64,000 nucleotides of DNA from an archaeon. Lineage in GTDB: Archaea; EX4484-52; WAPT01. The translations under genes and the position numbers were made by a program. The stretch covers positions 2,955-66,954 of the forward strand of contig JAPDKB010000008.1 of NCBI GenBank assembly GCA_029258795.1, given 5' to 3'. Shown here piece after piece: positions 36,980-61,531 of this stretch (positions are counted from its first letter, which is position 1; every line of letters begins with the position of its first letter). The notes beneath the pieces were generated by a model. It was not told the origin of the DNA. It searched no databases and was given only the letters and a program-made list of their open reading frames with translations.

Positions 36980-36995
36980 TAGGAAATTTTTCCCA
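36980..36995. repeat. GGA-N6-TCC palindromic site
   Basis: TAGGAAATTTTTCCCA with T-rich left and A-rich right flank. Confidence 0.7.
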
Positions 36996-37065
36996 ATTAT
37001 AAAAAAATATAAGGTAACGACTCACATCCCTAGTAAGGAATTTCTATCCCTCGCTTTCGGGCTGT

Positions 37066-37449
37066 TCAGAATATCGCACTCCCTCTATAGAAGTTGTCTC
37101 TGGTCCCAAGTAAATTTCTCTTTTGGAATAGAGGTACAGCACAACTATAACACCAAATATGAATGCTGCAATGTTACCTAATAATCAAATTTGTTAGCAC
37201 ACTCAGAGAAAACAGGGCCACGGCGATTTTCCAAGCGGTTGGGTTCAGTTTTAACAGTCCGTACCAGATCACTGCACCAGCAAGCAGGAGTATTGTTGTA
37301 AGTATGATCAGTAGTCCCATCCATGGAGCATAGTAAGATATATAGCTCCATCTCTGAAGTACCACTCCTAGTCCAAGGAAGTACCACGCCAGAGAGAAGT
37401 AAAAAAGTCCAGCAAGGATTTTTACACCGAGTGGGGCTTCCCTCTTCAT
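37066..37449 (-). pseudogene. Orphan four-TM membrane protein, frameshifted near 37180
   Basis: ORF 37174..37449 continues in another frame as LGNIAAFIFGVIVVLYLYSKREIY...; strong GGAGGTGA RBS. Confidence 0.6.
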
Positions 37450-37709
37450 AGCATCACCTCCTAAACACTAACTCCTGTCTTTTTTACTTCCAGTCGTCAT
37501 CCCCGCGGACGTGCAAAGAAATCGCTCTGCCCTTCTGCCGCGGGTCACAACAATCTCTGCGATTTGAGAGAACTAAATGCCACGCTAGCGCTTCAAAAAC
37601 ATTCGTCCCCAGAAGTCAAGGAATTCTGTTGTTCTTAGAACAAATCGTGATTAAAACCAGAGAACTTAAAAAGCTTTCCGCGTTGCGTTTTTACAATTTT
37701 GGAGATTGT

Positions 37710-37964
37710 TTAAACCTTTCTTCTCAGCAGTCCCAGTCTTTCTCCTATTTCGAGCCACGCCCACGCCCAAACCACGGCTTCAAATGATCTCACATAGTCC
37801 TGTTTTTCCAGAAAATAGCGCGCATCCTTTATGTAAGCTTTGATGTTCTCCACGAAGCCCTTCTGTGAGTTATCCAGCAGCTCTATTTCGAGATTTTCAA
37901 GCTTGTTCAGCCATTTTTCCGTTTCCTGAATGAGCTGTTCTTTGATGTTGTCTTCACCCATCAT
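37710..37964 (-). CDS. DUF357 family protein
   Basis: AYIKDARYFLEK, FEAVVWAWAWLE; next to dph5. Confidence 0.85.
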   Translation of the reverse strand: MMGEDNIKEQLIQETEKWLNKLENLEIELLDNSQKGFVENIKAYIKDARYFLEKQDYVRSFEAVVWAWAWLEIGERLGLLRRKV

Positions 37965-38701
37965 TTCACCTCTATGAGCCTCAAAAACTCCTCCTCATGG
38001 TGCTCCAGCTCTGCAGGCAATATGAGGCAATGTGGCGGTTTTCCGAAATCTATACTTTTAAGTTTTGAAATCGAACCATAAAGTACGTTTTTGTCCCTGC
38101 TGCCAAGACGGGAAAGGACCACAATCTTTGTCTTCTCGTTGAAAATTCCGTTGCCTTTTTTCTCTTCCATCTTTAACAGGATGTCCAGAGCTGTCTTTAC
38201 ATCCATCCCTATATCGAGAAGAATTAAAGTGTGGAGGTTTGCTTTCAGGTTGTTGAGAATGTGGTCGTAAGGGCTGAGAGGAAAGTAATTTTCCCCCGGG
38301 AAGGGAAGGCTAACGACTCTGCCGAATTTATAAAGGGAAAGCCCGCTTTCACCAGCTGCCGTGAGGATTGAGGAGGCGTGTATCACCTCAACCTCTACGC
38401 CGGAAAGCATGCACTCCCTCACTATCTCCTTGTGTGTTGTTGCGAAGAGCGGATCGCCCGGCACGAGAAAAGCCACAACTTTGTTTTTAGCTTCTTTAAC
38501 AACCACGTTCCTCTCTTCAACATCCTCTCTCCTCAGTTCTACAATTTCCTTCCCTATCATTTTGCTCAGATTTTCAATGTTGATATTGAGCGGAGATGTG
38601 TATCTCTCAAAAAAAACGATGTCAGCTTTCTTGCATGCTTCCAGACCTCTTAAGCTCATGTCTTTCTCATCGCTAAGACCCAAACCCACAAGGTAAAGCA
38701 T
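37961..38701 (-). CDS. dph5: Diphthine synthase
   Basis: LYLVGLGL, ERYTS, GDPLFATTH, YKFGR, LHTLILLDI. Confidence 0.95.
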   Translation of the reverse strand: MLYLVGLGLSDEKDMSLRGLEACKKADIVFFERYTSPLNINIENLSKMIGKEIVELRREDVEERNVVVKEAKNKVVAFLVPGDPLFATTHKEIVRECMLSGVEVEVIHASSILTAAGESGLSLYKFGRVVSLPFPGENYFPLSPYDHILNNLKANLHTLILLDIGMDVKTALDILLKMEEKKGNGIFNEKTKIVVLSRLGSRDKNVLYGSISKLKSIDFGKPPHCLILPAELEHHEEEFLRLIEVK

Positions 38702-38753
38702 GATTTGTGTTTTTGGATAGATATTTTAAAAGGTTGTCAACCAATTTTTGTGT

Positions 38754-39140
38754 ATGGCGAGGTTTGGGAACATACTCAAAAAGCTCATCAAGATGGCAGA
38801 AACGGATGATGATGTGTTAGCGGTGCTGCTTTTCGGTAGTGTTGCCAGAGGAGAGAAAAATGGTAAAGACCTGGACATATGTCTTGTCTTTAAGAAGGAC
38901 ACGGATAAAAATAAAATATTCGAGAAAATGGTGGAATACGCTTCCATTTCCGATATTGTGGATGTTAAAGCGTTTCAGCTTCTCCCGCTTCATATGAGAA
39001 TGAGGGTGATTAGAGAAGGTAAGATTTTGCATGTTAAAAATGAGGATTTAGTGTACGATGTTGTAATATCTACACTCAGAGAGTTCGAGGAATTCAAGTT
39101 CATCTACCATTCCTATCTGGAAGGTGTGTTGAATGGATAA
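38754..39140 (+). CDS. mntA: MNT nucleotidyltransferase antitoxin
   Basis: LFGSVARG...DLD (GS-x-DxD). Confidence 0.88.
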   Translation: MARFGNILKKLIKMAETDDDVLAVLLFGSVARGEKNGKDLDICLVFKKDTDKNKIFEKMVEYASISDIVDVKAFQLLPLHMRMRVIREGKILHVKNEDLVYDVVISTLREFEEFKFIYHSYLEGVLNG

Positions 39141-39558
39141 GGAAAGGATACTCGCAAAAATAGATGAAATGGATGGATATCTGGAAGAGCTTGAAAGCAT
39201 CAGACCATCAACTTTTGAAGAATATGAGAGTAGCATCGAGAAAAAGCGCGCCTGCGAAAGACTTCTTCAGCTGGCCATAGAATGCGTTATAGATGTATGC
39301 GCGATGATCGTTAAGGAGTGCAAACTTGGATTGCCTGCTGATGAAGATGACATGTTCAGAAAGATAAGGAAAGCGGGTGTGATAAACAATGAGCTTGAGG
39401 AAAAGCTGAGAAAGATGAAGGGGTTCAGAAACATTTTGATACATCGCTACGGAGAGATAGATGATGAGCTTGTTTTTGAAAAGCTGTTCATGATTGAGGA
39501 TTTCGAGAAGTTTAAGGAAGCTGTGCTCGAATTTCTTAGAAAAGGTGAGATTGAGTGA
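39133..39558 (+). CDS. hepT: HEPN (DUF86) ribonuclease toxin
   Basis: RNILIHRY (RX4HXY); overlaps the MNT gene. Confidence 0.9.
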   Translation: MDKERILAKIDEMDGYLEELESIRPSTFEEYESSIEKKRACERLLQLAIECVIDVCAMIVKECKLGLPADEDDMFRKIRKAGVINNELEEKLRKMKGFRNILIHRYGEIDDELVFEKLFMIEDFEKFKEAVLEFLRKGEIE

Positions 39559-40445
39559 GCTCAGGCTTAAACGTTCGCAAGCTTCTCGAAGGAAAGGTAG
39601 GTGAGGATGAGTTAGAACACATACCGCGTGCTTTCGAAATAATAGGAGATATAGCCATAGTTGAGCTCGATGAAGTTGCAAGAAAGCATGCAAAGCTAAT
39701 AGCTGACGCGATAATGCAGCTAAACAAAAACGTGAAGGTCGTGCTGAACAAAGTTGAAGATGTCTCCGGCAAGTATCGTGTGCCGAGGTATGAAGTCATT
39801 GCGGCTAAGCAAAACGAAAGGAATTTCTCGCACATCAAAAAAGAGTTTCGCCCCACGAAAATAACTGAAACCGTACATACAGAACATGGATGTAAGTTCC
39901 TTCTGGATGTCAGTAAAGTGTATTTTTCCGCGCGCCTGAGTTTTGAAAGGAAAAGGATAGCTGAGATGGTGAGGGATGGCGAGAGAGTGCTCGTGATGTT
40001 TGCCGGTGTTGGTCCGTTTGCCATAGTGATAGCGAAGAATGCCAACCCTGCTGAGGTTGTTGGAGTTGAGCTGAACCCTCACGCTGTTGAATACTTCAGG
40101 AAGAACGTAGCACTAAACAAAGTTGAAGATAAGGTAAAAGTTGTGGAGGGAGATGTTGCAGAAATTGTGCCAAAACTGCAATATCAATTTGACCGTATCG
40201 TCATGCCTGCTCCGAAGGATGCTCCGGATTATCTGGAGGTTGCGCTTGAAAAGATAAAGGAGGGTGGAATGATCCATCTGTACACTTTTGCAAGCGAGGA
40301 GGAAATAGAAAGCAAGGATGTTGTGAAACGTGTGGAGGAGAGGTGCAAGAAAGCGGGTAAGAAAGCAGAGGTCGTATTCTTCAGGAAGTGTGGAGCCGTC
40401 GCTCCTTATCATTACAGAGTTGTGCTGGATTTGAAGATTGGATAA
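39555..40445 (+). CDS. trm5: Trm5/Taw2-family tRNA methyltransferase
   Basis: FEIIGDIA, KVYFSARL, MFAGVGPF, ELNP. Confidence 0.85.
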   Translation: MSSGLNVRKLLEGKVGEDELEHIPRAFEIIGDIAIVELDEVARKHAKLIADAIMQLNKNVKVVLNKVEDVSGKYRVPRYEVIAAKQNERNFSHIKKEFRPTKITETVHTEHGCKFLLDVSKVYFSARLSFERKRIAEMVRDGERVLVMFAGVGPFAIVIAKNANPAEVVGVELNPHAVEYFRKNVALNKVEDKVKVVEGDVAEIVPKLQYQFDRIVMPAPKDAPDYLEVALEKIKEGGMIHLYTFASEEEIESKDVVKRVEERCKKAGKKAEVVFFRKCGAVAPYHYRVVLDLKIG

Positions 40446-40453
40446 ATTTCCCA
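40438..40453. repeat. GGA-N6-TCC palindromic site
   Basis: TTGGATAAATTTCCCA, exact reverse complement of the site at 44258. Confidence 0.75.
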
Positions 40454-40486
40454 AAAAAATAGAAAAGAAAAATGAAAAAGATCAAA

Positions 40487-41044
40487 TCAGTGCAATGTCA
40501 CCCGTAATGTCTTTATCCGCATCGCTTTCGCCCCCTCTATCTGATCTCCGATTTCATTCCAGTCATGGATTCGTATCTTAAATTCTACATTGTTTGAAGG
40601 TTTTGTCTCTGGACCAACTATAGTAATAGTTATCTGTTCTCTCGGAACTTCGATAGCAGTATAATATATGTGGTCTGTTGGAAATCCTAAACCCTCCAAT
40701 TTTTCTAGAAATCTCTTAAATAAGGTTGGGATTCGGTAGAATTCTATGTCATTATTATCAGGATCCTCCAAATTAAAGTGGAATTTGGCTCCATTTTCCG
40801 TCTCTTCAATTTCATAGCATACAAGATTAACTCCTGACTCTGTCCAGACACACCCTTCTGGATTTTCCTCTTCTAATTTTTCTATTGCTTCAGTTAATCT
40901 CTCGACAGTTTCGTACCCTTCAAATGAATAGCTCCAGAGCACTGTTCCAAGAGCCTCGCCATACCCTAACTCTAAAATAATTTTCACAATACTTTCAAAA
41001 ATATCCAAAAGTTTACGAATCTCGCGTTCATACACCACCTTCAT
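40487..41044 (-). CDS. Orphan hypothetical protein
   Basis: GGAGGTGA RBS before ATG 41044; 185 aa, acidic. Confidence 0.7.
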   Translation of the reverse strand: MKVVYEREIRKLLDIFESIVKIILELGYGEALGTVLWSYSFEGYETVERLTEAIEKLEEENPEGCVWTESGVNLVCYEIEETENGAKFHFNLEDPDNNDIEFYRIPTLFKRFLEKLEGLGFPTDHIYYTAIEVPREQITITIVGPETKPSNNVEFKIRIHDWNEIGDQIEGAKAMRIKTLRVTLH

Positions 41045-41328
41045 AACCACATCACCTCCCAACTTTTCAAGGTGCACAGAATGGACAACTTCAGGTGCAT
41101 TAGGATAACCCAGGTCAAAGAATATCTCTGCTATATAAACGTGCTTTGCTGTTAAAGTGTGGTTCTAGGCGGGACAAACTAATGCAAACTAAGAACAAAG
41201 CTACCACTAGCACCACTAGTTATTCTGTCTCATCTAAGAACAAAGTCTGGTCAGCTCTTTGTTTGCGCAAGGAATTCTTAAACCAAAGATTTTAAATTTG
41301 TTAATAGTGGTGGCTACAGAAAGCGGCT

Positions 41329-43157: not shown

Positions 43158-43173
43158 AGGGATGTTTTTCCCG
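43158..43173. repeat. GGA-N6-TCC palindromic site (variant)
   Basis: AGGGATGTTTTTCCCG upstream of tRNA-Pro copy 1. Confidence 0.5.
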
Positions 43174-43285
43174 AATAAAAAATTTTATCCTATACTATTA
43201 CCATACTCTTTCGGAATTTCCGTGGAGTAAAACCCCACTATTTTAAAAAATTTCACGTTCAGAATTCCTTGCGTTCATGGATATT

Positions 43286-43410
43286 GGGGCCGTGGTGTAG
43301 CTTGGTTATCATTCCGGCTTTGGGAGCCGGCGACCCCGGTTCAAATGCCATGGAGCAAGCTCCTTGCATTTCTAGCTGCTCCGCGGCTGAAAATCCGGGC
43401 GGCCCCACCA
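43286..43410 (+). tRNA. tRNA-Pro(TGG) copy 1 with 48-nt T-loop intron (43346-43393)
   Basis: GGGGCCG acceptor, CCGGC-TT-TGG-GA-GCCGG, BHB TTCA/TGAA with AAT bulges, ACCA end. Confidence 0.93.
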
Positions 43411-44118: not shown

Positions 44119-44257
44119 TTTTTTAGAAAAAGTGGGGGTGGTAGGAATGCGTGTATCCAATATTATTAGCAAGATTGTGCTGATAATAATAATTGTGCTT
44201 GCAATGTTTGGAGCGTATAATATAATCAAGATATTCATCTTATTTTTTGTTTATTTT

Positions 44258-44273
44258 TGGGAAATTTATCCAA
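44258..44273. repeat. GGA-N6-TCC palindromic site
   Basis: TGGGAAATTTATCCAA after a T-tract. Confidence 0.75.
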
Positions 44274-44286
44274 CAAAAAACCTGAG

Positions 44287-50656: not shown

Positions 50657-50660
50657 TGAA

Positions 50661-51043: not shown

Positions 51044-51084
51044 TTTTTTTGTATTTTGTAAGTTGGGTTTTATTTTTCGATTTA

Positions 51085-51100
51085 TGGGAAAATTATCCAA
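51085..51100. repeat. GGA-N6-TCC palindromic site
   Basis: TGGGAAAATTATCCAA. Confidence 0.72.
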
Positions 51101-51738: not shown

Positions 51739-52107
51739 TTAGCTTATGTGAGATATCTCCAAACTCTTGCAAGTTTGGGCAAGATCCTGCTCAAGGTTTA
51801 TAATGTTCTTGTAGACGATCTCTTCCAAAAACGCTCTCACCTGTTTGGCAATTTCAGGAATATGCTTTTCATAAAGTTTTTTATTTTTCTTAAGATCATT
51901 CTCGACATTAACTACCTGCCTGTAAAGATTTTCAAGACCCCATAGTTCCTCGATTTTATTGTGATTTGCTGCTCCCGCTTTTGCTATGTTAAGTGCTTCC
52001 TTAACCTCATTAACGGCACCCAGCACACCTTGGTAAGTGAGCCGGGGATTTTCAAGAGATTTGATCGCACCATACACCTTTTTTTCAGCAAGTCTATATT
52101 CAAACAT
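51739..52107 (-). CDS. Hypothetical protein
   Basis: 122-aa ORF divergent from tbp. Confidence 0.55.
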   Translation of the reverse strand: MFEYRLAEKKVYGAIKSLENPRLTYQGVLGAVNEVKEALNIAKAGAANHNKIEELWGLENLYRQVVNVENDLKKNKKLYEKHIPEIAKQVRAFLEEIVYKNIINLEQDLAQTCKSLEISHIS

Positions 52108-52252
52108 CCCACAACCACCCCCAAAATTTTCTTGCTCTTTATTATGGTATTAAAAGTATTTAAATGTTTCGTTACTTTTAAGTGGTTACAATTTAAAAAG
52201 GTTAAACATTTAAAGATGTCCTCAAAATTTAAAAAGGCAAGGGGTGTGTGGT

Positions 52253-52831: not shown

Positions 52832-52867
52832 ATTCTTCCCACTCAAAATATTTTTGGGTGAGATTTC

Positions 52868-53467: not shown

Positions 53468-54399
53468 AGCAAAAGCTGAATGTGCCGCGGCTCTTCAGGG
53501 AGCGCTACAGGAGGATTCTTGGGGATGAGGTAAAGGTTCTTGTTGATTACTGCTTCAAACCGCTCAGGAAAAGCATAAGGATCAACACGCTAAAGATTGA
53601 TGTGGATGAATGTGTGAAAATGCTTGAATCCAAAGGGTGGGAACTGAAGCAGGTGCCATGGTGTAGCAACGGCTTCTGGGTGGAGAACAGAAATGAGGAG
53701 CAGCTTGGAAACACGCTGGAGCACTTTATGGGCTACTATTACGTGCAGGAAGCATCATCCATGATCCCTCCTATTGTGCTGCAGCCAGAGGAAAAGGATT
53801 TCGTGCTTGACATAGCTGCCGCGCCAGGCTCTAAGACCACGCAGATGGCTGAAATGATGAAGAACAAGGGGTGTATAGTGGCAAACGACATCCAGATTCA
53901 GCGGATAAAGGTGTTGAGGTTCAATCTGGAGAAGCTCGGAGTCATAAACACCGTTGTGACGAGAATGGATGGAAGGAAGTTCATAAAGTTTAAGGAGAGG
54001 TTTGATAAAGTTCTGGTGGATGCCCCTTGCTCATCCGAGGGTATCATGAGGAAGGACTGGAAAGCGTTTTCCAGATGGAACATCAAATTCATAAAGGAGA
54101 TGGCAAAGCTGCAGAAAAAGCTGGTGGATGCTGCTGCGGTCACGCTTAAGAGAGGGGGTGTAATGGTTTACTCCACATGCACCATGTCTCCGGAGGAGAA
54201 TGAGGCGGTGGTGGATTATGCTGTAAAGAAGCACGGGCTGGTGGTGGAGAAGGTAAAGGTTAAGGGGCTTAAAGCCAGGCACGGCATAACTGAATGGGAA
54301 AGCCAGCAATTCGATGAAAGTGTGAGGAACTGCTTGCGCATCTGGCCTCAGGATAATGACAGCGAGGGATTTTTCGTTGCAAAGTTGAGGAAGGAGTGA
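53464..54399 (+). CDS. RsmB/NOL1/NOP2 family RNA m5C methyltransferase
   Basis: QEASSM, AAPGSKT, DAPCS, YSTCT, EENE. Confidence 0.95.
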   Translation: MKQKLNVPRLFRERYRRILGDEVKVLVDYCFKPLRKSIRINTLKIDVDECVKMLESKGWELKQVPWCSNGFWVENRNEEQLGNTLEHFMGYYYVQEASSMIPPIVLQPEEKDFVLDIAAAPGSKTTQMAEMMKNKGCIVANDIQIQRIKVLRFNLEKLGVINTVVTRMDGRKFIKFKERFDKVLVDAPCSSEGIMRKDWKAFSRWNIKFIKEMAKLQKKLVDAAAVTLKRGGVMVYSTCTMSPEENEAVVDYAVKKHGLVVEKVKVKGLKARHGITEWESQQFDESVRNCLRIWPQDNDSEGFFVAKLRKE

Positions 54400-54404
54400 G
54401 GGAA

Positions 54405-54872
54405 ATGAGCAAGCTGAAAATTATGAGTGAAGAGGAAAAGAGGGAGATGCTGGACTATCTGGAGGAGAGGTTCGGGATAGATAGGGGTGTATTTAACGGT
54501 TACATTTTCATTAAGAGCGGGAGGAAGGTGTGGATAACAAACAGGGATGTTGTGGAGAAGAACTTCTCCGGGATGAATGTGGAAGCTGCGGGCATGCTTT
54601 TTGTTAGATGGGAAAAAATTAAGGACAAGATCAAGATCACCACGAATGCTGCGCAGATTTTTGGAAAGTACGCAACAAAGAACGTTGTGGAAGTGGATGA
54701 AATTCAGCTCCACCAAGTTCTATGCGGACTCAACCTGTATGATGTGGATGTTGATTGTGAAGACGGATACGTGCTTTTAAAGTATGGGGAACACATTCTT
54801 GGGGTGGGGTTGAAGCACGGGAACTTCATCAAAAACCTGATTCCAAAAGCAAGGAGAGTTAAAAAGCTTTAA
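54405..54872 (+). CDS. Nip7/PUA-like protein (RsmF C-terminal-like)
   Basis: Follows the NOL1 gene; GYVLL..ILGVG..IKNLIPKARR. Confidence 0.7.
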   Translation: MSKLKIMSEEEKREMLDYLEERFGIDRGVFNGYIFIKSGRKVWITNRDVVEKNFSGMNVEAAGMLFVRWEKIKDKIKITTNAAQIFGKYATKNVVEVDEIQLHQVLCGLNLYDVDVDCEDGYVLLKYGEHILGVGLKHGNFIKNLIPKARRVKKL

Positions 54873-54977
54873 AACTTTGGCTTTAAAAGGGTGAATTGAA
54901 AGCAAAAAAATTCGCTTCATGGATTTTTCAGTTAGGACGCATGTTGTGTTTGAGCAGATAGCTCCATGTTCTTCCAA

Positions 54978-55080
54978 ATCCCGGCTCCGGGGACAGTGCT
55001 TTCTCTCATCCTTCCTCTCCAGACGGAATTCTTATCCGTCGCATCCCCCATGAGAAAAGCGTCCATACCGGAGCCCGGAT
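54978..55080 (+). ncRNA. Free-standing BHB hairpin upstream of the tRNA-Gly-like gene
   Basis: Outer stem GGCTCCGG/CCGGAGCC, central GGAC/GTCC helix, AGT and ATA bulges, inner stem GCTTT(C)TCTCAT/ATGAGAAAAGC. Confidence 0.55.
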
Positions 55081-55085
55081 TCCAT

Positions 55086-55156
55086 GCGGCCGTGGTGTAG
55101 TGGGATCACGCCCCGTATCCAGCGGGGAAACGCCGGTTCGATTCCGGCCGGCCGCA
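55086..55156 (+). tRNA. tRNA-Gly(TCC)-like gene with non-canonical A33 and no CCA
   Basis: GCGGCCG/CGGCCGC acceptor, CCCCG-TA-TCC-AG-CGGGG, GCCGG-TTCGATT-CCGGC. Confidence 0.7.
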
Positions 55157-55186
55157 AATTCATGAAGATGTGTGGAGGTGGAGAAG

Positions 55187-55351
55187 ATGGCACCTCCTGA
55201 GAAATGTGATGAGTGCGGTTCCACCAACCTCAAGAAAGTTGTGATCGCCAAAATACCAACAGGGCCAATGGTCATTGGAGGGAGCACACCGTTAATGGAG
55301 TTAGCAGTATATCAATGTCGAGAGTGTAAAAACATAATGGGTCCCAAGTAA
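55187..55351 (+). CDS. Small Zn-ribbon protein, 54 aa
   Basis: Manual translation: MAPPEKCDECGSTNL...YQCRECKNIMGPK; GGAGGTG RBS. Confidence 0.65.
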   Translation: MAPPEKCDECGSTNLKKVVIAKIPTGPMVIGGSTPLMELAVYQCRECKNIMGPK

Positions 55352-55391
55352 AAGCAAGCTTTCAGACCATTTTATTTTTTCTTTTTATTTT

Positions 55392-55407
55392 TGGGAAATT
55401 TGTCCTG
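55392..55407. repeat. GGA-N6-TCC palindromic site
   Basis: TGGGAAATTTGTCCTG after a T-tract. Confidence 0.7.
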
Positions 55408-55598
55408 ATTTTGGTTTTGGATGAATGTGGAAGGGGCTCAGTTCAGCAAAAGGTTTATAAATTTTCGAGATATGTGTGACTAAAGAGTAACAAAAGTTGT
55501 CGATGCTGTAAATAATGGATCCCGTGAAAAAGCGGGATACCTAATTCTGGTTTAAGTAGTGGACAGCGTGAAGATGGCTGTCTCTATCTGTCCCGCAT

Positions 55599-55645
55599 GC
55601 CCCTGTTCAGGTTTTCTTTCCCGGGTGCAATTCCCGGCAAGGGTC
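55599..55645 (+). ncRNA. tRNA minihelix-like element (acceptor stem plus T-arm)
   Basis: GCCCCTG/CAAGGGT (6 of 7 pairs) enclosing a linker and CCGGG-TGCAATT-CCCGG. Confidence 0.55.
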
Positions 55646-55670
55646 GGAAGATATTAAAAGGAGGTGAAGA

Positions 55671-55973
55671 ATGATGGTGTCGTACTGCGCAGCATCGGAA
55701 ATGCTGAAGGGCACTTCCGAACTATGCGAGGTGTATCTGTTCGTTATACTCTATCTATCTGGATTATTGGCCGCATACGTCATCATAAAGCTGGAGAGAG
55801 AGCCAGAGATTCTGGAAAAGCTGACGAACAAACTGAATAGGAAGATAAGCTGGACTGGAAAGACGCTAGATAACATGGATGTTTGGGAAATAATAGTCAC
55901 GAGCATCATTCTGATTTCGCCAGTGCTATTTGTTATTCCATTCCTGCTAGGGTTCTGCCCGCGCTACTGCTAG
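55671..55973 (+). CDS. Orphan two-TM membrane protein
   Basis: GGAGGTGA RBS; two hydrophobic helices. Confidence 0.65.
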   Translation: MMVSYCAASEMLKGTSELCEVYLFVILYLSGLLAAYVIIKLEREPEILEKLTNKLNRKISWTGKTLDNMDVWEIIVTSIILISPVLFVIPFLLGFCPRYC

Positions 55974-56013
55974 CATAAATGTCCGCTAAGCTTTTCCCCA
56001 AATTTTTTGTCAT

Positions 56014-56141
56014 GCCCCCGTAAGGTAGCCAGGCATCCTTCCTTCCGGCGGATGGTTCGTTTTTCTGGAAAAGGAGGAGGTGCTATCCCGCCGCCACCTC
56101 ATTGCCGGAAGGAAACCCGGGTTCAAATCCCGGCGGGGGCA
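56014..56141 (+). ncRNA. tRNA-like element with the anticodon loop replaced by a ~55-nt insert
   Basis: GCCCCCG/CGGGGGC acceptor, AGG/CCT D-arm, 10-bp stem TCCTTCCGGC/GCCGGAAGGA, intact T-arm; no clear BHB or anticodon. Confidence 0.55.
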
Positions 56142-56185
56142 CTTTTCGAAATTTTTGGTGAAAACAAAACCTTCCTATTTTTTGT

Positions 56186-56231
56186 GCGGCCGAAAAAGCA
56201 CTGTGTCCGGGTGCAATTCCCGGCGGCCGCT
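56186..56231 (+). ncRNA. Perfect tRNA minihelix-like element
   Basis: GCGGCCG, 14-nt linker, CCGGG-TGCAATT-CCCGG, CGGCCGC. Confidence 0.65.
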
Positions 56232-56255
56232 GGAAAACTGTGAAAAAAGGAGGAG

Positions 56256-56534
56256 GTGAGAATTTTGAGGGAGAAAAAACCGGGGTCTGATTGGATATTG
56301 ATATGGGTTGAAAAGGATATTAAGAAAGAAGGTATGTTGAAGAAAATAATAGAGTATGCTAGGGAAAATGAGTTGATTGAGCAGGATAGAAAGTGGCTTC
56401 ACCCTACAGAAATAGAGGAAGTAGTAGGAAAGGTGCTAAAACACATAATGAAAGAAAAAGATCCTAACGCACCCCTGACACCAGAGAGGGCTGAAGAGCT
56501 CTATAACAAACACTATGTCACCCACGAACACTAA
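56256..56534 (+). CDS. Orphan hypothetical protein
   Basis: GGAGGAGGTGA RBS directly after the minihelix. Confidence 0.6.
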   Translation: MRILREKKPGSDWILIWVEKDIKKEGMLKKIIEYARENELIEQDRKWLHPTEIEEVVGKVLKHIMKEKDPNAPLTPERAEELYNKHYVTHEH

Positions 56535-56568
56535 TCGTCACCCATTAATTTTTATTTTTTGAAATTTA

Positions 56569-56584
56569 TGGGAAGAAATTCCCG
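56569..56584. repeat. GGA-N6-TCC palindromic site
   Basis: TGGGAAGAAATTCCCG. Confidence 0.7.
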
Positions 56585-56640
56585 TTTAATTGAGATTAAA
56601 AAATTTAAATGCGAGAAATAAAAAGCTGTGTGTTGTTGGT

Positions 56641-56762
56641 GGGCCGGTGGTCTAGCCTGGAAGGACGCTGGCTTCGCACGCCAGAGACCCCGGGTTCAAA
56701 TGCTGCGGAGCAAGCATGAATATGCTGGAACTCCGCAGCTGAGAATCCCGGCCGGTCCACCA
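56641..56762 (+). tRNA. tRNA-Ala(CGC) with 45-nt T-loop intron (56701-56745)
   Basis: G3:U70 pair, CTGGC-TT-CGC-AC-GCCAG, BHB TTCA/TGAG with AAT bulges, ACCA end. Confidence 0.93.
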
Positions 56763-56765
56763 CAT

Positions 56766-57440
56766 CTATTTCAGCACTTTTCCTGTCATTTTCCACCATA
56801 TGAGAAGGTCAAGCTCTCCCACCTGCATTTTCTTGTGATGTGCTATACCACACAACAACTTTTCAAGCTTGAGATAATCTTTTCTTTTTGAAAGATTTGG
56901 ATCCCACCAGAAGGGTATACACCCTTCTCGATAAAGCCAGTCGAGCACATGCCTGTCAACTATGGCAACATCAAGCTGTCCCGTGTTTCTTAAAAAGTGA
57001 CTTGCCTCCTTGTATCCAATACCCTTGATATTTTTAACCAGCCATTCCCGAACCATTGCACTTTCTTCCAGCTTGAGCACTTCCAGCACTTCATCCATCT
57101 TTTGCCATGCATCGATGATGTATTTTGCTTTTCTCTGATAAAACCTCACCCCACATTTTCTGAGAGCATTACGAATCCGTCGCTCATCCATATTGTCATT
57201 CTCCTTTTCAGCGAGCATCTTCTGAAACTTCAGACCCGCAATTGCTGACGAATTGGCGGCAGAGATGCAGAACGCAAGCTCGGAAAATATGGTGGCGTCA
57301 AACTCCGTATCAAAATATGGCTGAAAGTTGTGATGTGTTTTTCCTTTCCTTCCAAGCTCGATGAATTTAAGCACTCTATCTCTTATCGCTTTTATCACTT
57401 CAGGCCTCTCCTCCAGACGTTTGTAAGCATCGCAGGACAT
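56766..57440 (-). CDS. ogg: 8-oxoguanine N-glycosylase/DNA lyase
   Basis: FSELAFC, KGIGYKEASHFLRN, AIVDRH, W..MTGKVLK. Confidence 0.92.
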   Translation of the reverse strand: MSCDAYKRLEERPEVIKAIRDRVLKFIELGRKGKTHHNFQPYFDTEFDATIFSELAFCISAANSSAIAGLKFQKMLAEKENDNMDERRIRNALRKCGVRFYQRKAKYIIDAWQKMDEVLEVLKLEESAMVREWLVKNIKGIGYKEASHFLRNTGQLDVAIVDRHVLDWLYREGCIPFWWDPNLSKRKDYLKLEKLLCGIAHHKKMQVGELDLLIWWKMTGKVLK

Positions 57441-57829
57441 ATTCTGACAACTCCCTCAAAGTTCTCTATCTTTTTGTGCACTTCCATCAGCTCATCCATG
57501 CTGTTGCATACCACTTCCACTATCAAATTGTGATCACCACTGGTTATATATATCACTTCCACTTCCTTAAATCCCTTGAGTTTTTCGTAAACCTCAACCA
57601 GTTTTTCTGGTTTCACATCAATGCCAGTTAGCGATATTGCCATTCCTGCTCTCACGGGATCGATTAGAGCTTTGTATCCCAGCACAACACCGCTTGCTTC
57701 AAGCTTCTCTATCCTTTTTCTTATTGCTGCCTCACTTACCTTAAAAAGCTTTGCCAAAGCCACATTCGGGATTCTTGCGTTTCTTATCAGTGCTCTTATC
57801 AGGAGTTTATCGTTTATTCTATTCTTCAT
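57395..57829 (-). CDS. Lrp/AsnC family transcriptional regulator
   Basis: NARIP..LAK..VSEAAIRKRIEKL, SGDHNL. Confidence 0.92.
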   Translation of the reverse strand: MKNRINDKLLIRALIRNARIPNVALAKLFKVSEAAIRKRIEKLEASGVVLGYKALIDPVRAGMAISLTGIDVKPEKLVEVYEKLKGFKEVEVIYITSGDHNLIVEVVCNSMDELMEVHKKIENFEGVVRICPAMLTNVWRRGLK

Positions 57830-57919
57830 ATTTCGCATTTCGAACTTAAAGTTTTTAAATCTTTAAAATAATGTTTATATAAGATACCGAAATGTTCGAA
57901 TTTGTGAAGGTGGAAAAGA

Positions 57920-58504
57920 ATGGAGAAGACAATGGAGAATCTTGTCAAGGCGTTCATAGGGGAAAGTCAGGCAAGGAATCGCTATAACATGTATGCAAAG
58001 ATCGCCAAGAAAGAGGGATACGAGCAGATAGCAGAAATATTTGAAATCACAGCAGAAAATGAAAGAGAGCATGCAAAATGGCTCATGAAAATGATCCAAG
58101 AGTTGCTCAAAAAAATGAATAAGGGTATGAGCAGCATTAAGGTGGAGGCTGAAGCCCCTCTGGTTGTGGGAAACACAGTGGAGAACCTGAGGGCGGCTAT
58201 AGAGGGGGAGCACTATGAGAACAGTGAAATGTATCCTGAATTTGCAAGGATTGCGGAAGAGGAAGGGCTGAAAGATATTGGTGAAAGGTTGAGAGCAATA
58301 GCGAAAGCTGAAGAGCATCACGAGGAGCGTTACAGGAAGCTGTTTGAGCTTGTGGAAGCAGGTAAGTTCTTCAAGAGGGATAAGGAAGTTGTGTGGGTTT
58401 GCAGGAAGTGCGGCTATGTCCGTACTGGGACAGAACCTCCAGCCAAATGTCCTTCGTGTGACCACCCATACAATTACTTTCAGGTTAAGTGTGAGGAGTT
58501 TTGA
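57920..58504 (+). CDS. rbr: Rubrerythrin
   Basis: AFIGESQARNRY, ExxH motifs, C-terminal CRKCG...CPSC. Confidence 0.96.
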   Translation: MEKTMENLVKAFIGESQARNRYNMYAKIAKKEGYEQIAEIFEITAENEREHAKWLMKMIQELLKKMNKGMSSIKVEAEAPLVVGNTVENLRAAIEGEHYENSEMYPEFARIAEEEGLKDIGERLRAIAKAEEHHEERYRKLFELVEAGKFFKRDKEVVWVCRKCGYVRTGTEPPAKCPSCDHPYNYFQVKCEEF

Positions 58505-58629
58505 TTTTCCCTCTTCCTTCCATTTATTCTCTGGAGTCGTTTAAAGCATTTACATTTAATTAGTGAAAAAACTGATGTGCAGGAAAGAAATATATTTTTG
58601 TTCTGCCCACCTTAATCTTGGTGAGTGTC

Positions 58630-58800
58630 ATGGAGAACATAGCGGAGATTAAGGAGAGGATCTTGAAAGCTGGCCTCGGGGTTCAGACGGAAAAGGTGGA
58701 AAAAGATAATGAGCAGTTCTGCCCAGAGTGCGGTATGCGGCTTGTGCCAGCAGAGGGCTGTGTATTCTGTCCGTCATGCGGGTGGAGTCCGTGTAAATAG
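58630..58800 (+). CDS. Small Zn-ribbon protein
   Basis: CPECG...EGCVFCPSCGWSPC, resembles the C-terminal ribbon of class II ribonucleotide reductases. Confidence 0.65.
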   Translation: MENIAEIKERILKAGLGVQTEKVEKDNEQFCPECGMRLVPAEGCVFCPSCGWSPCK

Positions 58801-58813
58801 TTAGGGTGGTGTT

Positions 58814-59386
58814 ATGACGAGTGATCTTGAATGCATATTTTGCAAGATAATAGAGAAGAAAATTCCTGCAGCGGTGATTTATGAGGATCCTTATGTCATC
58901 TCATTTCTTGATATAAATCCTCGATTTAAGGGGCATGCACTCGTCATTCCAAAGGTGCACGTCTCAACCCTTGATGAGTTGGGGGATGAGGCTTTGGCAC
59001 ACCTTTTCGTGGTGGTGAAGCATGTTGCCAAGAATTTGAAGGAAACGCTTGGCGCGGATGGCTACAACATCATAAGCAACAACGGAAGTGTTGCAGGACA
59101 GGTTGTTCCACACTTGCACATCCATGTTGTTCCGCGATACGCTGATGAGAAGAAAGGAATTGGTTTTGAAGCCACATTCCCTGTTGATGAAGAGGCCAAG
59201 AACAAACTGCACGAAATTGCTGAAAAGGCCAAGATAAAGCACGAGATAAAACCAGCATTTAGGAAAGATGATAAAGCAGATACGAGCGAAAAAGAGGAAA
59301 AGAAGGATGGAAAGGAAGAAAATAAAGAAGCATTACCATATGAAAGCGAGTATTTTGAGGACAACGGTGTGCCGAAGTTCAGGTGA
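58814..59386 (+). CDS. HIT family hydrolase
   Basis: CIFCKI, GHALVIPK, HLHIHVVPR. Confidence 0.95.
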   Translation: MTSDLECIFCKIIEKKIPAAVIYEDPYVISFLDINPRFKGHALVIPKVHVSTLDELGDEALAHLFVVVKHVAKNLKETLGADGYNIISNNGSVAGQVVPHLHIHVVPRYADEKKGIGFEATFPVDEEAKNKLHEIAEKAKIKHEIKPAFRKDDKADTSEKEEKKDGKEENKEALPYESEYFEDNGVPKFR

Positions 59387-59414
59387 GCTCTACTTTTTGC
59401 TTTTTTTATTTTAA

Positions 59415-59430
59415 TGGGATTAATTTCCTA
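59415..59430. repeat. GGA-N6-TCC palindromic site
   Basis: TGGGATTAATTTCCTA between a T-tract and an A-tract. Confidence 0.7.
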
Positions 59431-59449
59431 AAAAACAAAGAAAAAAAAA

Positions 59450-59665
59450 TCAAGAAATCTTCTTTAAGCGAATTTTGTAAATCTCTCCTTCATTGGTGAT
59501 ACTTGAAATACACCAGCTATAACCTTCCGGCCATATTTCTCCATTCATCCCTATTATTTTGTTGTCCTTTACCCTCCCCCACGTTACGATCTCTCCCGCG
59601 CGTTTATCCTTGCTAACGGCACCGCATACCTCTAGCAAGCCAAGTAAGAACTCGTTATCCTCCAA
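59450..59665 (-). CDS. Orphan small protein
   Basis: GGAGGTGAG RBS plus TTG start. Confidence 0.5.
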   Translation of the reverse strand: MEDNEFLLGLLEVCGAVSKDKRAGEIVTWGRVKDNKIIGMNGEIWPEGYSWCISSITNEGEIYKIRLKKIS

Positions 59666-59726
59666 TCTTACTCACCTCCATCCGGAATTGATCTTTTGCT
59701 AAAAGCGCATCTTCAAAAAAAGAGAA

Positions 59727-60743
59727 TTATTGTTGCGGCAGTATTATTGGTGGTGCCACTGGCTCGGTAAGATTTACTCCGGGGTAGAAGTTAGATGGTG
59801 CAGGCACTATGATTATTGCGTTGTTCTCCGATTCCGCGAACTTCTGAAGCACCTGTAGATAGTACCACTGCACGTATTCTGGATTTCTTCTCAGCGATTC
59901 TCCAATTATCTGGTTAGCCTTTGCTATACCCTCTGCCTCAACCTGCTTTCTTTCTGCCTCTCTCTTTTCTTTCTCAAGAATGTACTGCATTCTCTGGGCT
60001 TCTTGTTGTGCCTGCAGTTTAGCCTCGATTGCATCCTTCAGTCGGGTTGGAAGTTCTATTTTTCTCAGGTACACTCCCGTGACATCAAAGTACTGTGATA
60101 GTCTCTTCTCCAGCTCATTGTGAATTGATGCTTCCACTTCACTTCTTTTTGATCCATAAATTTCCTCTGCGTCGTACTGGGAAATCACATCCCTCACCGC
60201 GCTTCTAATGGTTGCTATCTTCCATTGCTCCAGATAGTCCTGATTCTTGAACGTCTTTGCGATTTCTTCCAGCTTGTCCTTTCTTATCTTTGTCGCAACC
60301 GAGAGATCAATTCGAATCTCCAGTGCGTCCTTGCTCAGAACCACGATGCTCGGATAGACAAGCCTAGAGGTAGCTATTTCCTCGGATTCGGCGGAAGCTG
60401 TGGCGGGTATCATTTCCTCCTTGCTTACAAAATCGACGGTTCTCACACCAACATAATAGATCTCCACGCTCTGTGTTAGTGGGTTCCTCCAGTGAATGCC
60501 GGGTTCTGCAGTACCTACGAATTTTCCGAACTCTTTGATCACCGCTTCTTCCGTTTGGTCTACCGTGTAGACTCCTAGCGCGCAGAAAGCTATTATGATT
60601 GCAATTGCACCAGCAATTACCCACTTCAACCACCATGGCCTTCGCTTTTTCTCTTCAGATCTTCTTTCACTCCCTCCACTCCAACCTTCAACTCTAGCTT
60701 CCTCCGGAGAAATAGGTCCATCCATCTCCAAGGGGTCTTCCAT
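59727..60743 (-). CDS. SPFH/band 7 (prohibitin-like) membrane protein
   Basis: TM helix, EFGK..EPGIH, IRSAVRDV, AIEAK..AQQEAQR. Confidence 0.93.
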   Translation of the reverse strand: MEDPLEMDGPISPEEARVEGWSGGSERRSEEKKRRPWWLKWVIAGAIAIIIAFCALGVYTVDQTEEAVIKEFGKFVGTAEPGIHWRNPLTQSVEIYYVGVRTVDFVSKEEMIPATASAESEEIATSRLVYPSIVVLSKDALEIRIDLSVATKIRKDKLEEIAKTFKNQDYLEQWKIATIRSAVRDVISQYDAEEIYGSKRSEVEASIHNELEKRLSQYFDVTGVYLRKIELPTRLKDAIEAKLQAQQEAQRMQYILEKEKREAERKQVEAEGIAKANQIIGESLRRNPEYVQWYYLQVLQKFAESENNAIIIVPAPSNFYPGVNLTEPVAPPIILPQQ

Positions 60744-60750
60744 CTTTCTA

Positions 60751-60808
60751 ACCTCCCCCGGGCCGCTATTCCCTGACTTGCGTCAGGGGCGACACCCGGT
60801 GTGGGAGG
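60751..60808 (-). promoter_or_regulatory. Structured 5' leader sequestering the RBS of the SPFH gene
   Basis: Reverse strand: ACCTCCC...CCGGG...CCCTGAC-GCAA-GTCAGGG...CCCGG-GGGAGGT. Confidence 0.5.
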
Positions 60809-61086
60809 TAGAGAAGTATCACTACAATACTCATATCTTTCGTCTCGAGGTAAGAAGTCAGATTTTGTTTTTAACAGAAACCGTTTTTATCTAAACCTTT
60901 ATATTTTTTACTATTTGGTGGTTCTTTCAGGTTAACATGATCTTCAATCTCTCTCTGGCTAACAAATAAATTCTTGACTGAGGATATACTTACTGAACAT
61001 CAATAAAAGTTGTGGAACGTGTGGGAGCTGTTTCTTGTCCAAGTAGCTTTCAGAATATGATTGATGTGTCCCGCTCTGTCCCGTGT

Positions 61087-61135
61087 GCTCCCGTGCGAGC
61101 CCTGCTTGTGCCCGGGTTCAAATCCCGGCGGGAGA
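61087..61135 (+). ncRNA. tRNA minihelix-like element with a single internal hairpin
   Basis: CTCCCG/CGGGAG, GCGAGC-CCT-GCTTGT hairpin, CCGGG-TTCAAAT-CCCGG. Confidence 0.55.
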
Positions 61136-61515
61136 TGATATGTGGCGGGAGATGAATTTTGGAATGCCGCCGGGGGGCGCCAGCCCGGTGGTTTGTGACC
61201 GCCTACTTTTCGGCGGTACTGGCGCACAAAAGTTTGTAATGGTTAGAGGGGGGTGGATATGGAAGCTCCAGGCTTCGAGCTAATATTCGCAATAATTGGA
61301 CTTTTAGCAACTCTGTGGTTATGAAAAAAGCGATTACAAGAGAGGAGGTGAAAATGTGCTGAGGCGAAGGGATGGAGGCCCCATCGACAGAACGGGCCAA
61401 TGAATTATAGTGATTCTAATGACTCTCACTTTTGTGTACATACTACTGGGTGCTGTGAATATTCTTAGAGAGCTCATGAGCTAAACAATTTCCCAATTTT
61501 TTATTTTTCATAATT

Positions 61516-61531
61516 TGGGAAATATTTCCCA
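61516..61531. repeat. GGA-N6-TCC palindromic site (perfect palindrome)
   Basis: TGGGAAATATTTCCCA with extended inverted flanks. Confidence 0.78.

Follow-up and report, generated by a model that had tools for sequence, protein, structure and literature searches.

A genus-restricted intergenic palindrome abutting oligo-T tracts in an uncultured vent archaeon: a possible protein-bound boundary element

What might a 16-bp palindrome do that recurs nine times within 64,000 nucleotides of an archaeal genome, mostly where genes end? The question arises from a stretch of that length (the window, considered as a whole) in the 1.17-Mb, 96% complete genome of an uncultured vent archaeon (G000). We define the palindrome as a TGGGA arm, six A/T bases and a TCCCA arm (TGGGA-W6-TCCCA), and call a copy strong when it has at most one mismatch in the genome-wide scan. 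Two genomes of the same genus, G001 and G002, served for comparison; coding DNA identity among the three species is 65–80%.

A check of the window recovered all nine 16-mers, coordinates and letters included, that a first-pass annotation had listed. The pattern by which it defined them, GGA-N6-TCC, does not rise above chance: the window holds 24 matches against 17.68 ± 4.18 in shuffled versions, 7 of 100 shuffles reach at least 24, and the 15 remaining matches have ordinary, coding-like flanks. The narrower class that it had actually picked, with an A/T spacer and TGGGA/TCCCA arms, is strongly non-random in genome-wide scans against controls. GGA-W6-TCC occurs 27 times genome-wide, 11 of them outside open reading frames (ORFs) of at least 100 aa, where six control palindromes have zero or one copy each. 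The 11 strong copies comprise nine outside every called ORF and two in doubtful ORFs (73 and 94 aa); credible genes contain none. When 320 five-base arms with three G/C were ranked, TGGGA led with nine intergenic copies, against two for the runner-up and a mean of 0.11. Identical 16-mers also recur: TAGGAAATTTTTCCCA is present three times, and TGGGAAATTTATCCAA, found at 44258, matches the 40438 site read on the opposite strand.

Unit 1 (36951..37014) carries TAGGAAATTTTTCCCA at 36980-36995, T-rich to the left and A-rich to the right, where UppS (+, stop 36914) converges with a 91-aa membrane ORF (−, stop 37174); the 16-mer is identical in G001 and G002 (16/16 columns). In unit 2 (40438..40484), TTGGATAAATTTCCCA at 40438-40453 includes the TYW2 stop codon, and a 196-aa orphan (−, stop 40487) converges on it; the A-run right of the palindrome is this orphan's T-run, and the gap spans ~41 nt in all. 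The slot at 40487-41077 holds unrelated genes in G000 and G001, the palindrome of the latter standing beside a 201-aa gene, and is empty in G002, where TYW2 and HerA converge 76 nt apart and the palindrome is absent. Unit 3 (43158..43195) is a weak copy, AGGGATGTTTTTCCCG at 43158-43173, from which HerA (−, start 43092) and a tRNA with an intron (+, from 43286) diverge; its positional orthologues in G001 and G002, TGGGAATATTTTCCAA and TGGGAAGATTTTCCAA, are nearer the consensus. A T-run leads into TGGGAAATTTATCCAA at 44258-44273 in unit 4 (44233..44282), which separates a 133-aa orphan (+, stop 44118) from HypE (−, stop 44287) and for which no counterpart was found in the G001 stretch compared. 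One strain-variant contig fuses 51050 to 44252, in the areas of units 5 and 4.

Unit 5 (51044..51100; T-run, then TGGGAAAATTATCCAA at 51085-51100) follows a 64-aa orphan ORF (+, stop 51043) that ends 42 nt upstream of the palindrome. A 2.27-kb segment absent from variants (48914-51181) encloses this palindrome and has its right end 81 nt away. Unit 6 (55367..55410; T-run, then TGGGAAATTTGTCCTG at 55392-55407) is found 235 nt past tRNA-Gly(UCC) and ahead of a 100-aa ORF, whereas unit 7 (56541..56584; T-run, then TGGGAAGAAATTCCCG at 56569-56584) lies 35 nt past a 92-aa ORF and 55 nt ahead of tRNA-Ala, a spacing also seen in G001, with the TATA-like AAATTTAAAT beginning ~16 nt beyond the palindrome. 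Unit 8 (59390..59455; T-run, TGGGATTAATTTCCTA at 59415-59430, A-run) takes up the 63 nt that separate HIT (+, stop 59386) from a 71-aa orphan (−, stop 59450), and is the first element of a segment (59387-61496) absent from a strain variant. Unit 9 (61489..61557) begins 33 nt past a 286-aa orphan (−, stop 61564); its palindrome, TGGGAAATATTTCCCA at 61516-61531, is perfect and is accompanied by a T-run on either strand, outer half-sites TTCCCA and TGGGAA, and dyad symmetry over ~70 nt. As had been proposed, eight of the nine sites, all but 43158, have the 3' end of one or more genes or tRNAs facing them, and an incoming ORF is an orphan, matching no Pfam, PHROGs or NCBIfam family, at seven of nine. 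Partner genes are often housekeeping (UppS, TYW2, HypE, HIT).

The T-rich left and A-rich right flanks described earlier were borne out in three genomes, where 25 of 58 oriented flanks have 14 or more T among the 22 nt preceding the palindrome. In the composite element, a 20–25-nt T-run lies within ~3 nt of the palindrome, on the side of the incoming gene end, and T occupies positions −4 to −2 in 22–23 of 25 oriented units. Among the T-run-bearing orientations of this genome, about 12 of 15 have a same-strand gene or tRNA end 20–357 nt upstream, and nine have one within 81 nt, the + side of 61516 being an extra, uncertain case. A TATA-like box is frequent 12 to 26 nt past the palindrome, at a distance that varies even between orthologues: among the orthologues of C4 67507 it is 14, 18 or 26 nt, while the spacing of the T-run is constant. 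GGA-N6-TCC directly follows 10 of 59 strong intergenic T-runs (7/16 on C3, 3/9 on C4). Of 701 intergenic gaps only 10 contain the element, and the palindrome is missing from 49 of the 59 strong T-runs, so the element cannot be a general terminator.

Eight sites recur at matching positions in G001 and G002. Across eight orthologous groups the sequences agree in 109 of 128 columns of the palindrome, compared with 471 of the 960 columns of the 60-nt flanks. All 30 aligned sites, which were collected through the GGA-N6-TCC pattern or by position, have GGA and TCC intact. No pair has changed on both sides (shuffled mean 2.1), and among 25 distinct rows 7 are mismatched at pair 1-16, 12 at 2-15 and 11 at 6-11. 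The 36-nt RNA folds of the nine sites range from −2.3 to −10.8 kcal/mol at 37 °C; seven are no better than about −6.4 kcal/mol, and only two outdo all but 6 of 200 shuffles. The motif is real, non-random, intergenic, coupled to T-runs and conserved, with no selection for base pairing. The lack of double changes, together with the weak hairpins, fits a protein site better than an RNA structure.

The best reading of the palindrome and its T-run, which we hold tentatively and with somewhat less than even confidence, is that they form a protein-bound boundary or roadblock terminator-insulator. The first-pass annotation had offered a protein-bound terminator or insulator as one option, and it agrees best with the anatomy (T-run on the incoming side, tiny convergent gaps, no compensation, weak hairpins), though we infer, rather than observe, the protein binding, the stopping of polymerase and the identity of the protein. 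The palindrome would bind a dimeric, sequence-specific protein through two TGGGA half-sites one helical turn apart over an A/T-rich centre, and with the abutting oligo-T tract would act as a boundary element between transcription units. RNA polymerase coming from a gene end may be halted by the bound protein with its active site on the T-run, and transcript release there would spare a converging gene, or the promoter that comes next, from read-through; where a TATA-like box lies 12–26 nt beyond, the protein might also shield or organise that promoter. Oligo-T suffices for intrinsic termination in archaea, and long coding-strand T-runs straight after stop codons are common to archaeal intrinsic terminators and the units described here, but a conserved palindrome past the T-run is not in the known signal. 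Candidate binders in this genome are 13 TrmB-like winged-helix hits (five above the family cut-off) and an Lrp/AsnC gene, none of which anything in the genome links to the palindrome. Counting against the boundary reading, a general boundary factor does not predict restriction to two chromosome stretches, the sites at 43158 and C4 16353, which have diverging promoters on either side and are approached by no gene, suit a promoter factor better, and the convergent TYW2/HerA pair of G002 does without the palindrome.

The closest parallel to such a boundary comes from eukaryotic Pol I units, at whose ends, and also just ahead of the next promoter, Reb1 and TTF-I sites are positioned much as the palindrome is here. 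The available portions of three reports on Pol I terminators (Reb1 and Nsi1 in yeast, the TTF-I "Sal box" in mammals) pair a DNA-bound factor with a T-rich element directly upstream of its sequence-specific site (PMC13675443, PMC12366685, PMC3045592). Our element differs in being archaeal and genus-specific, a 16-bp palindrome that would work from either direction rather than an asymmetric Myb-type site, and in its few (about 11–16), regionally clustered copies. The literature searched held no example of an archaeal roadblock terminator.

Alternatively, the palindrome could serve a transcription factor, as its operator or upstream activating site, in the control of a small regulon of strong promoters, the T-runs being unrelated neighbouring terminators; the proposed regulon comprises tRNAs, an unassigned structured RNA, a large surface protein, ADP-forming acetyl-CoA synthetase and HerA. 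Arms of 5 bp around an A/T centre have the shape of many archaeal winged-helix and Lrp-type sites, such as palindromes of 13–17 bp with arms one helical turn apart. TATA-like boxes lie 12–26 nt from 56569 (tRNA-Ala), 43158 (HerA), C4 67507, C4 86005 and C4 89958, and on both sides of C4 16353; the layout is retained in G001 and G002, and the Lrp/AsnC gene (57395-57838) falls within the cluster. A third of the copies, however, lack a promoter, including 36980, 40438, 44258 and 59415 between converging gene ends, and at 40438 and 59415 the palindrome fills the gap so that no promoter could be served. Furthermore, neighbouring genes have no common function, and the coupling is to T-runs rather than to TATA, as the varying distance at C4 67507 illustrates; we regard an operator as unlikely, if far from negligible. 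An RNA hairpin that stabilises or processes transcripts in 3' untranslated regions seems highly improbable. The location past gene ends would suit it, and two-sided units can form long hairpins (61516: −26.1 kcal/mol over 76 nt, z −3.85), but a transcript that ends at the T-run would stop short of the palindrome, which lies beyond it, and the weak short folds, broken pairing and zero compensatory changes speak against it, as does a likely thermophilic host. High G+C in structural RNAs is linked with growth temperature, and the values here (64–69%, against 45% for the genome) suggest such a lifestyle.

The remaining alternatives turn on how the copies are distributed. The motif is restricted to one genus, with 11 strong copies here against five each in G001 and G002. 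All 11 fall on contigs C3, C4 and C7, which account for 29% of the intergenic sequence, and none on C1 and C2 (546 kb together); the copies gather in two chromosome stretches and border segments of variable gene content. G000-specific copies at 51085, 59415, 55392/56569 and C4 89958 sit in segments missing from relatives or strain variants, and a unit stands where the genes end in each of three variable segments (48914-51181, 59387-61496 and ~55410-56585), as it does in the 40487-41077 slot. These units, and the 6-bp A/T spacer between inverted arms, a layout shared with dif, could point to site-specific recombination of an Xer/dif-like or integron attC-like kind, with insertion and excision of gene cassettes, and at 55392 a few bases at most separate one junction from the edge of the palindrome. 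Yet mappable strain and species indel junctions do not lie inside the palindrome: those at 48913-6/51181-2 are 81 nt away and have a 10-bp direct repeat of their own, the junction at 59386/61497 is at the outer edges of the T-runs, and C4 89958 is ~800 nt inside its variable segment. The intergenic dif site, in the available text of PMC2958812, has 11-bp arms, a single copy per chromosome and conservation across orders, as opposed to conserved arms of 5–6 bp and 11–16 copies here; the genome encodes one tyrosine recombinase (a 290-aa, XerA-like frame) with no second integrase found, and housekeeping genes neighbour the sites in both orientations. The Xer/dif-like site of the first-pass annotation thus finds no support, and we consider recombination very unlikely. 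A small selfish or neutral repeat of ~40–70 bp (T-run, palindrome, A-run), an AT-rich analogue of bacterial REP/BIME elements, appears doubtful at best; it posits local spread into harmless intergenic positions and travel with rearranged segments. REPs are high-copy, G+C-rich stable hairpins tied to RAYT transposases. Both kinds of element are extragenic palindromes at gene 3' ends and convergent gaps that vary in copy number among relatives, and the clustering, the recurring 16-mers and the 85–89% likeness of units from different loci across 35–44 nt (unit 6, 44 nt, against the unit ahead of tRNA-Ala in G001 and G002) favour a repeat. The copies here are nevertheless low-copy, weakly folding and conserved in position in three species, better preserved in the palindrome than in the flanks, and they lack target-site duplications, the one clear 10-bp repeat bracketing the 2.27-kb segment instead; no Y1 (RAYT-type) transposase was found in the 96%-complete genome. 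The clustering could also reflect a chromosome-level role, for which we see a slim chance, as a protein-bound replication-fork barrier, centromere-like site or SMC-positioning site, tolerated only between genes since a tightly bound protein would obstruct polymerase. The available text of PMC11840125 provides a precedent in Thermococcus, where SMC is positioned by a DNA-bound roadblock protein. A tight link to T-runs and incoming-gene direction would not be expected of such a site, and no ParB-like gene was found in the genome. C4 and C7 are adjacent in G002, so their copies span one ~128-kb stretch with Orc1/Cdc6 and PolD DP1, in which one palindrome lies ~1.8 kb from the cdc6 end; C7 also holds a conserved 1.1-kb non-coding region, not adjacent to cdc6, whose very AT-rich core is flanked by three palindrome-like sites.

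All nine 16-mers that the first-pass annotation listed in the window are present at the positions it reported. The GGA-N6-TCC core that served as its formal definition shows no excess: the window holds 24 matches against 17.7 ± 4.2 expected, a count reached by 7 of 100 shuffles, and the remaining 15 resemble ordinary coding sequence. The class it had selected by eye, with an A/T spacer and TGGGA/TCCCA arms, is highly non-random, and genome-wide counts of GGA-W6-TCC, of 1-mismatch copies and of arm words bear out its enrichment over controls. GGA-W6-TCC occurs 27 times in the genome, with 11 copies outside ORFs of at least 100 aa compared with 0–1 for six control palindromes; TGGGA-W6-TCCCA with at most one mismatch occurs 11 times, nine copies lying outside every called ORF and the other two within doubtful ORFs of 73 and 94 aa. 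When the same construction was counted for all 1024 five-base arms and compared among the 320 arms with three G/C, TGGGA yielded 9 intergenic copies, while the runner-up yielded 2 and the mean was 0.11. At two and three mismatches the signal merges with background (1 of 14 and 22 of 165 outside ORFs), and sites 43158, 55392 and 56569, which belong to this weaker class, are credible solely through their context and orthology. The 18-mer TTTTTGGGAAATTTWTCC matched 18 loci in viral collections and at least 120 in metagenome collections. Of these matches 98 were screened, and they lay in unrelated DNA with variable endings and no BLAST similarity to this genome; the pattern is too unspecific for such collections.

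Alignment of the sites on the palindrome reveals a T-run of 20–25 nt, typically TTTTTTATTTTTCATTT, that leads into it with a gap within ~3 nt. Positions −4 to −2 are T in 22–23 of 25 units oriented from the T-run side, and the unit consensus in that orientation is TGGGAAATTTWTCCCA. Most copies have a T-run on one side, while those at 59415, 61516 and 36980 have T-runs on both strands. Only palindrome positions 1–6 and 11–16 are conserved, and 1–2 and 15–16 are already variable. Site 61516 forms a ~70-nt dyad with extra outer TTCCCA/TGGGAA half-sites; an outer TTCC(C/T)A, at the T-run end away from the palindrome, was found in 4 of 15 units versus 4 of 78 control T-runs, which is only suggestive of a third half-site as part of the unit. 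Among strong intergenic T-runs on contigs C1–C9, 10 of 59 are directly followed by GGA-N6-TCC, comprising 7 of 16 on C3 (the contig of the window) and 3 of 9 on C4, with none among the 34 on other contigs.

The assembly (G000), in which the window is C3 2955–66954, comprises 1.17 Mb in 23 contigs, is 96% complete and contains TBP, TYW2, HypDEF, HerA and PolD/Cdc6 genes, which identify it as archaeal. The closest related loci are 78–79% identical to its acetyl-CoA synthetase, and the sequencing runs in which its DNA occurs bear the label of hydrothermal vent metagenomes, with no RNA run listed for window 52000–61999. Its 5S rRNA and tRNAs are richer in G+C (64–69%) than the genome overall (45%), which suggests a thermophilic lifestyle. 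A pattern scan of 31 genomes found 11 matches here and 5 in each of two same-genus genomes, G001 and G002, compared with 0, 1 and 0 for a reversed control pattern. The remaining 28 genomes, all from the order, had 0–4 matches and 0–2 for controls; the two relatives were scanned with one mismatch allowed, a setting that missed at least three degenerate orthologues. Most of the 13 out-of-genus matches examined had ordinary flanks.

Syntenic stretches yielded eight orthologous groups: 36980, 40438 (G001 only), 43158 and 55392 in the window, and 16353, 67507 and 86005 on C4 and 37778 on C7. Coding DNA of the three genomes is 65–80% identical. Across these groups, 109 of 128 palindrome columns are invariant versus 471 of 960 columns in the 60-nt flanks, and in these alignments the palindrome is an island of conservation. 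The distance between palindrome and T-run is fixed, while that between palindrome and TATA box at C4 67507 drifts among orthologues (14, 18 and 26 nt). GGA and TCC do not vary across 30 sites (25 distinct), an invariance that is partly by construction because sites were picked with a GGA/TCC pattern or by position. Variation at the outer and inner positions disrupts base pairing in 7, 12 and 11 of the 25 rows. Pairs changed on both sides number 0 where shuffles average 2.1, and 492 of 500 shuffles have a higher covariation score. Two half-sites one helical turn apart around an A/T centre have the layout expected of a dimeric DNA-binding protein. Candidates for such a protein in this genome are 13 TrmB-like matches, an Lrp/AsnC gene at 57395–57838 and other small winged-helix or ribbon-helix-helix proteins.

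Converging gene ends flank sites 36980, 40438, 44258 and 59415, and the gaps that hold 40438 and 59415 are only ~41 and 63 nt long. Site 61516 follows a 286-aa gene (−) on one side; sites 51085, 55392 and 56569 are in tandem settings, where an upstream unit ends before the site and a gene or tRNA leads away from it; and 43158 lies between diverging HerA and tRNA genes. In this genome, ~12 of 15 T-run orientations have a same-strand gene or tRNA end upstream, within 81 nt in nine. The incoming orphans (91, 196, 133, 64, 92, 71, 286, 107 and 116 aa) matched no Pfam, PHROGs or NCBIfam family and show no similarity to one another, so the first-pass term "orphan units" is a fair description, while the opposite neighbour is commonly a housekeeping gene (UppS, TYW2, HypE, HIT or tRNA-Ala). 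These orphans were rejected both as a single family and as the source of the binding protein: 17 proteins gave no credible family and no mutual similarity, the exceptions being coiled-coil noise and one PHROGs "secreted protein" match whose gene adjoins no site. Rfam searches of the window and four loci at the gathering threshold, and of 36500–62000 and two small stretches by E-value, gave no match at the sites; all matches were tRNAs, 5S rRNA or sub-threshold noise. By a crude gene call the element occupies six of 424 tandem gaps, two of 175 divergent ones and two of 102 convergent ones, and because it is this rare, it does not simply mark all convergent gene pairs, an outcome that the annotation would have counted against its reading.

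In near-identical strain contigs from other runs and in the two sister species, segments ending in a unit are missing or rearranged, and the association of units with variable, orphan-bearing slots is real. Segment 59387–61496 (2.1 kb) has unit 59415 as its first element and stops just before the T-run of unit 61516; it carries a Band7/SPFH gene and a 71-aa partner and is missing from one co-occurring strain variant, and one run contains both forms at comparable depths (16.2 and 13.1). Segment 48914–51181 (2.27 kb) carries a tRNA-Pro gene along with three orphan ORFs of coiled-coil type, and neither strain-variant contigs nor the two sister species have it; its joints lie at 48913–6 to 51181–2, palindrome 51085 is 81 nt inside, and the 10-bp direct repeat AACGTAACAA stands at its bounds. 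This segment looks like a transposed block because its tRNA-Pro matches a sequence between HerA and HypE in G001. Other variable segments are ~55410–56585, between units 55392 and 56569, and C4 89159–92215, with palindrome 89958 ~800 nt inside. Slot 40487–41077 holds unrelated genes in G000 and G001, with the palindrome in both, and is empty and without the palindrome in G002. An apparent joint of 55394 to 61529 has a side of only 22 nt and was probably produced artefactually by the repetition of the unit.

The best-supported mechanism, which we favor tentatively, is a protein-bound boundary element: a dimer would sit on the palindrome, would stop polymerase over the adjoining T-run and would shield whatever lies past the palindrome. 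The main facts that this leaves unaccounted for are rarity and regional clustering. Archaeal termination is currently explained by oligo-T tracts and RNA-directed factors, and our literature searches turned up no description of a DNA-bound factor that aids arrest of archaeal RNA polymerase. PMC13675443, PMC12366685 and PMC3045592 describe eukaryotic Pol I terminators as a DNA-bound factor plus a T-rich element, and the units resemble such Reb1- or TTF-I-type roadblock terminators in sequence arrangement, with a T-rich element directly upstream of a putative protein site at the end of a transcription unit. A more ambitious and rather unlikely version would make the element an archaeal counterpart of eukaryotic general boundary factors (Reb1/TTF-I-like), with a dimer beside oligo-T that terminates polymerase from both sides, insulates the next promoter and perhaps stalls replication forks or SMC, and with bound A/T-rich modules that delimit slots for the gain, swap and loss of orphan genes. 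If true, the eukaryote-like features of archaeal transcription would extend to boundary factors, and the separation of converging and tandem units in very compact genomes would be explained. If the element is merely a local repeat or small-regulon operator, it would still help annotators of this uncultured vent lineage to locate transcription units and variable gene slots.

The rival explanations rank, in descending order, as promoter factor, REP-like repeat, chromosome-level site, recombination site and RNA hairpin. That the palindrome is the operator of a promoter factor with a small regulon is unlikely. Such operators are dyad-symmetric and keep a fixed place relative to BRE/TATA or to the start site of the genes they regulate. 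Here the dyad is present and a TATA-like box lies 12–26 nt past it on the outgoing side at ~7 of 14 sites, but no such box accompanies the four convergent sites, and the spacing drifts between orthologues. Less probable still is a locally spreading REP-like repeat. REP/BIME elements are stable hairpin-forming repeats usually accompanied by a RAYT (Y1) transposase, whereas the folds here are weak, covariation is lacking, and no Y1 transposase (PF01797) was found in this 96%-complete genome. Regional clustering could instead point to a site that acts at chromosome level, for instance by halting replication forks or SMC (compare PMC11840125), which we consider improbable. All 11 strong copies are on three contigs, C3, C4 and C7, that together contribute 29% of intergenic bases (nominal probability 1e-6, with the contigs chosen post hoc), and the nine copies in the window lie within 25 kb of C3. 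Since the C4 start adjoins the C7 start in G002, the copies on these two contigs form one ~128-kb span that includes Orc1/Cdc6 and PolD DP1. A ParB-type centromere was rejected, as a search of the genome for ParB_N found no ParB-like gene.

A recombination site, the Xer/dif-like possibility raised in the first pass, is very improbable. Breakpoint mapping in strain variants, which the annotation had proposed, upheld the variation of segments ending in a unit and placed no junction within the spacer: the indel junctions that could be mapped, with joints taken from short metagenome contigs, are either 81 nt off and flanked by a separate 10-bp repeat, or else coincide with outer T-run edges or the palindrome edge, and crossover at the palindrome is therefore unlikely. 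Integrons combine an IntI-type integrase with attC sites of ~60–140 bp behind promoterless cassettes in one orientation. Here a single tyrosine recombinase (XerA-like, C7 47627–48121, in a 290-aa frame), a 16-bp core and the lack of Rfam matches at the sites led us to reject an attC cassette array; both strands contribute flanking genes, some of which are housekeeping genes that possess TATA boxes themselves. According to PMC2958812, dif has two 11-bp arms around a 6-bp spacer (28 bp), is single per genome and is conserved across orders, whereas conservation here covers positions 1–6 and 11–16 with a T-run beyond, the copies with at most one mismatch number 11, plus weaker ones, and the motif is limited to the genus. 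An RNA hairpin is the least probable reading and a very improbable one: folds of the 36-nt units range from −2.3 to −10.8 kcal/mol at 37 °C, and only two of nine clearly beat shuffles. A bacterial-type intrinsic terminator, for which a passage in PMC13675443 gives the order as G+C-rich hairpin and then U-tract, was rejected: along the transcribed strand of the incoming gene the T-run comes first and the palindrome after it, and A/T predominates in the stems.

Several observations concern annotation near the sites. The longest ORF left of 36980 (653 aa, window 34905–36866, −) is a spurious antisense frame; the real genes there, both on the plus strand, encode geranylgeranyl reductase (34935–36167) and undecaprenyl-diphosphate synthase (UppS; 36201–36914). 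At 38748–39558, a nucleotidyltransferase/HepT (MNT-HEPN type) toxin–antitoxin pair lies between a diphthine-synthase-like methylase and TYW2; it is absent from that place in both sister species, where the gap is 79 nt. Intron-bearing tRNA genes were skipped by the default tRNA scan: ARAGORN with introns allowed, together with a weak Rfam match, added tRNA genes at 43286 (43286–43410, the weak match) and 56014–56142 (tRNA-Gly(GCC) with an intron), and tRNA-like joints near 61110 hint at a third. The apparent conserved non-coding stretch at 51178–51449 was rejected as an RNA gene, being a promoter and a small zinc-ribbon ORF (51190–51449; ~58 aa, CPKC...CDIC) that has its own TATA box, falls below the ORF-length threshold and is ~80% identical at the DNA level in both sister species.

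Other non-coding elements were seen elsewhere in the genome. The G+C-rich non-coding stretch at C4 ~16060–16330 (3060–3330 of fetched locus L023) has a long compensated stem conserved in all three species and is probably a structured RNA; it matched no Rfam family, with only a weak C/D-box-like match (E 0.34). The distance from a BRE/TATA-like CCGAAAAATTTATAT to palindrome C4 16353 is 12 nt. On C7, 37540–38640 (4540–5640 of fetched locus L022) is a 1.1-kb, ORF-free and very A/T-rich region in which an extremely A/T-rich core is surrounded by palindrome-like sites (three in all) and by a recurring word, CTCTCA(C/T)A. It is 85–90% conserved in G001 and G002, whose contigs end there, and it adjoins a DUF373 gene and a gene for an HNH endonuclease rather than cdc6; an origin-like region or RNA promoter cluster is possible. 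Finally, a CRISPR-like array at C1 300065–302421, with a period of ~68–70 nt and a repeat containing GTTTGAGAAGAACTAG, is the source of the top over-represented intergenic words.
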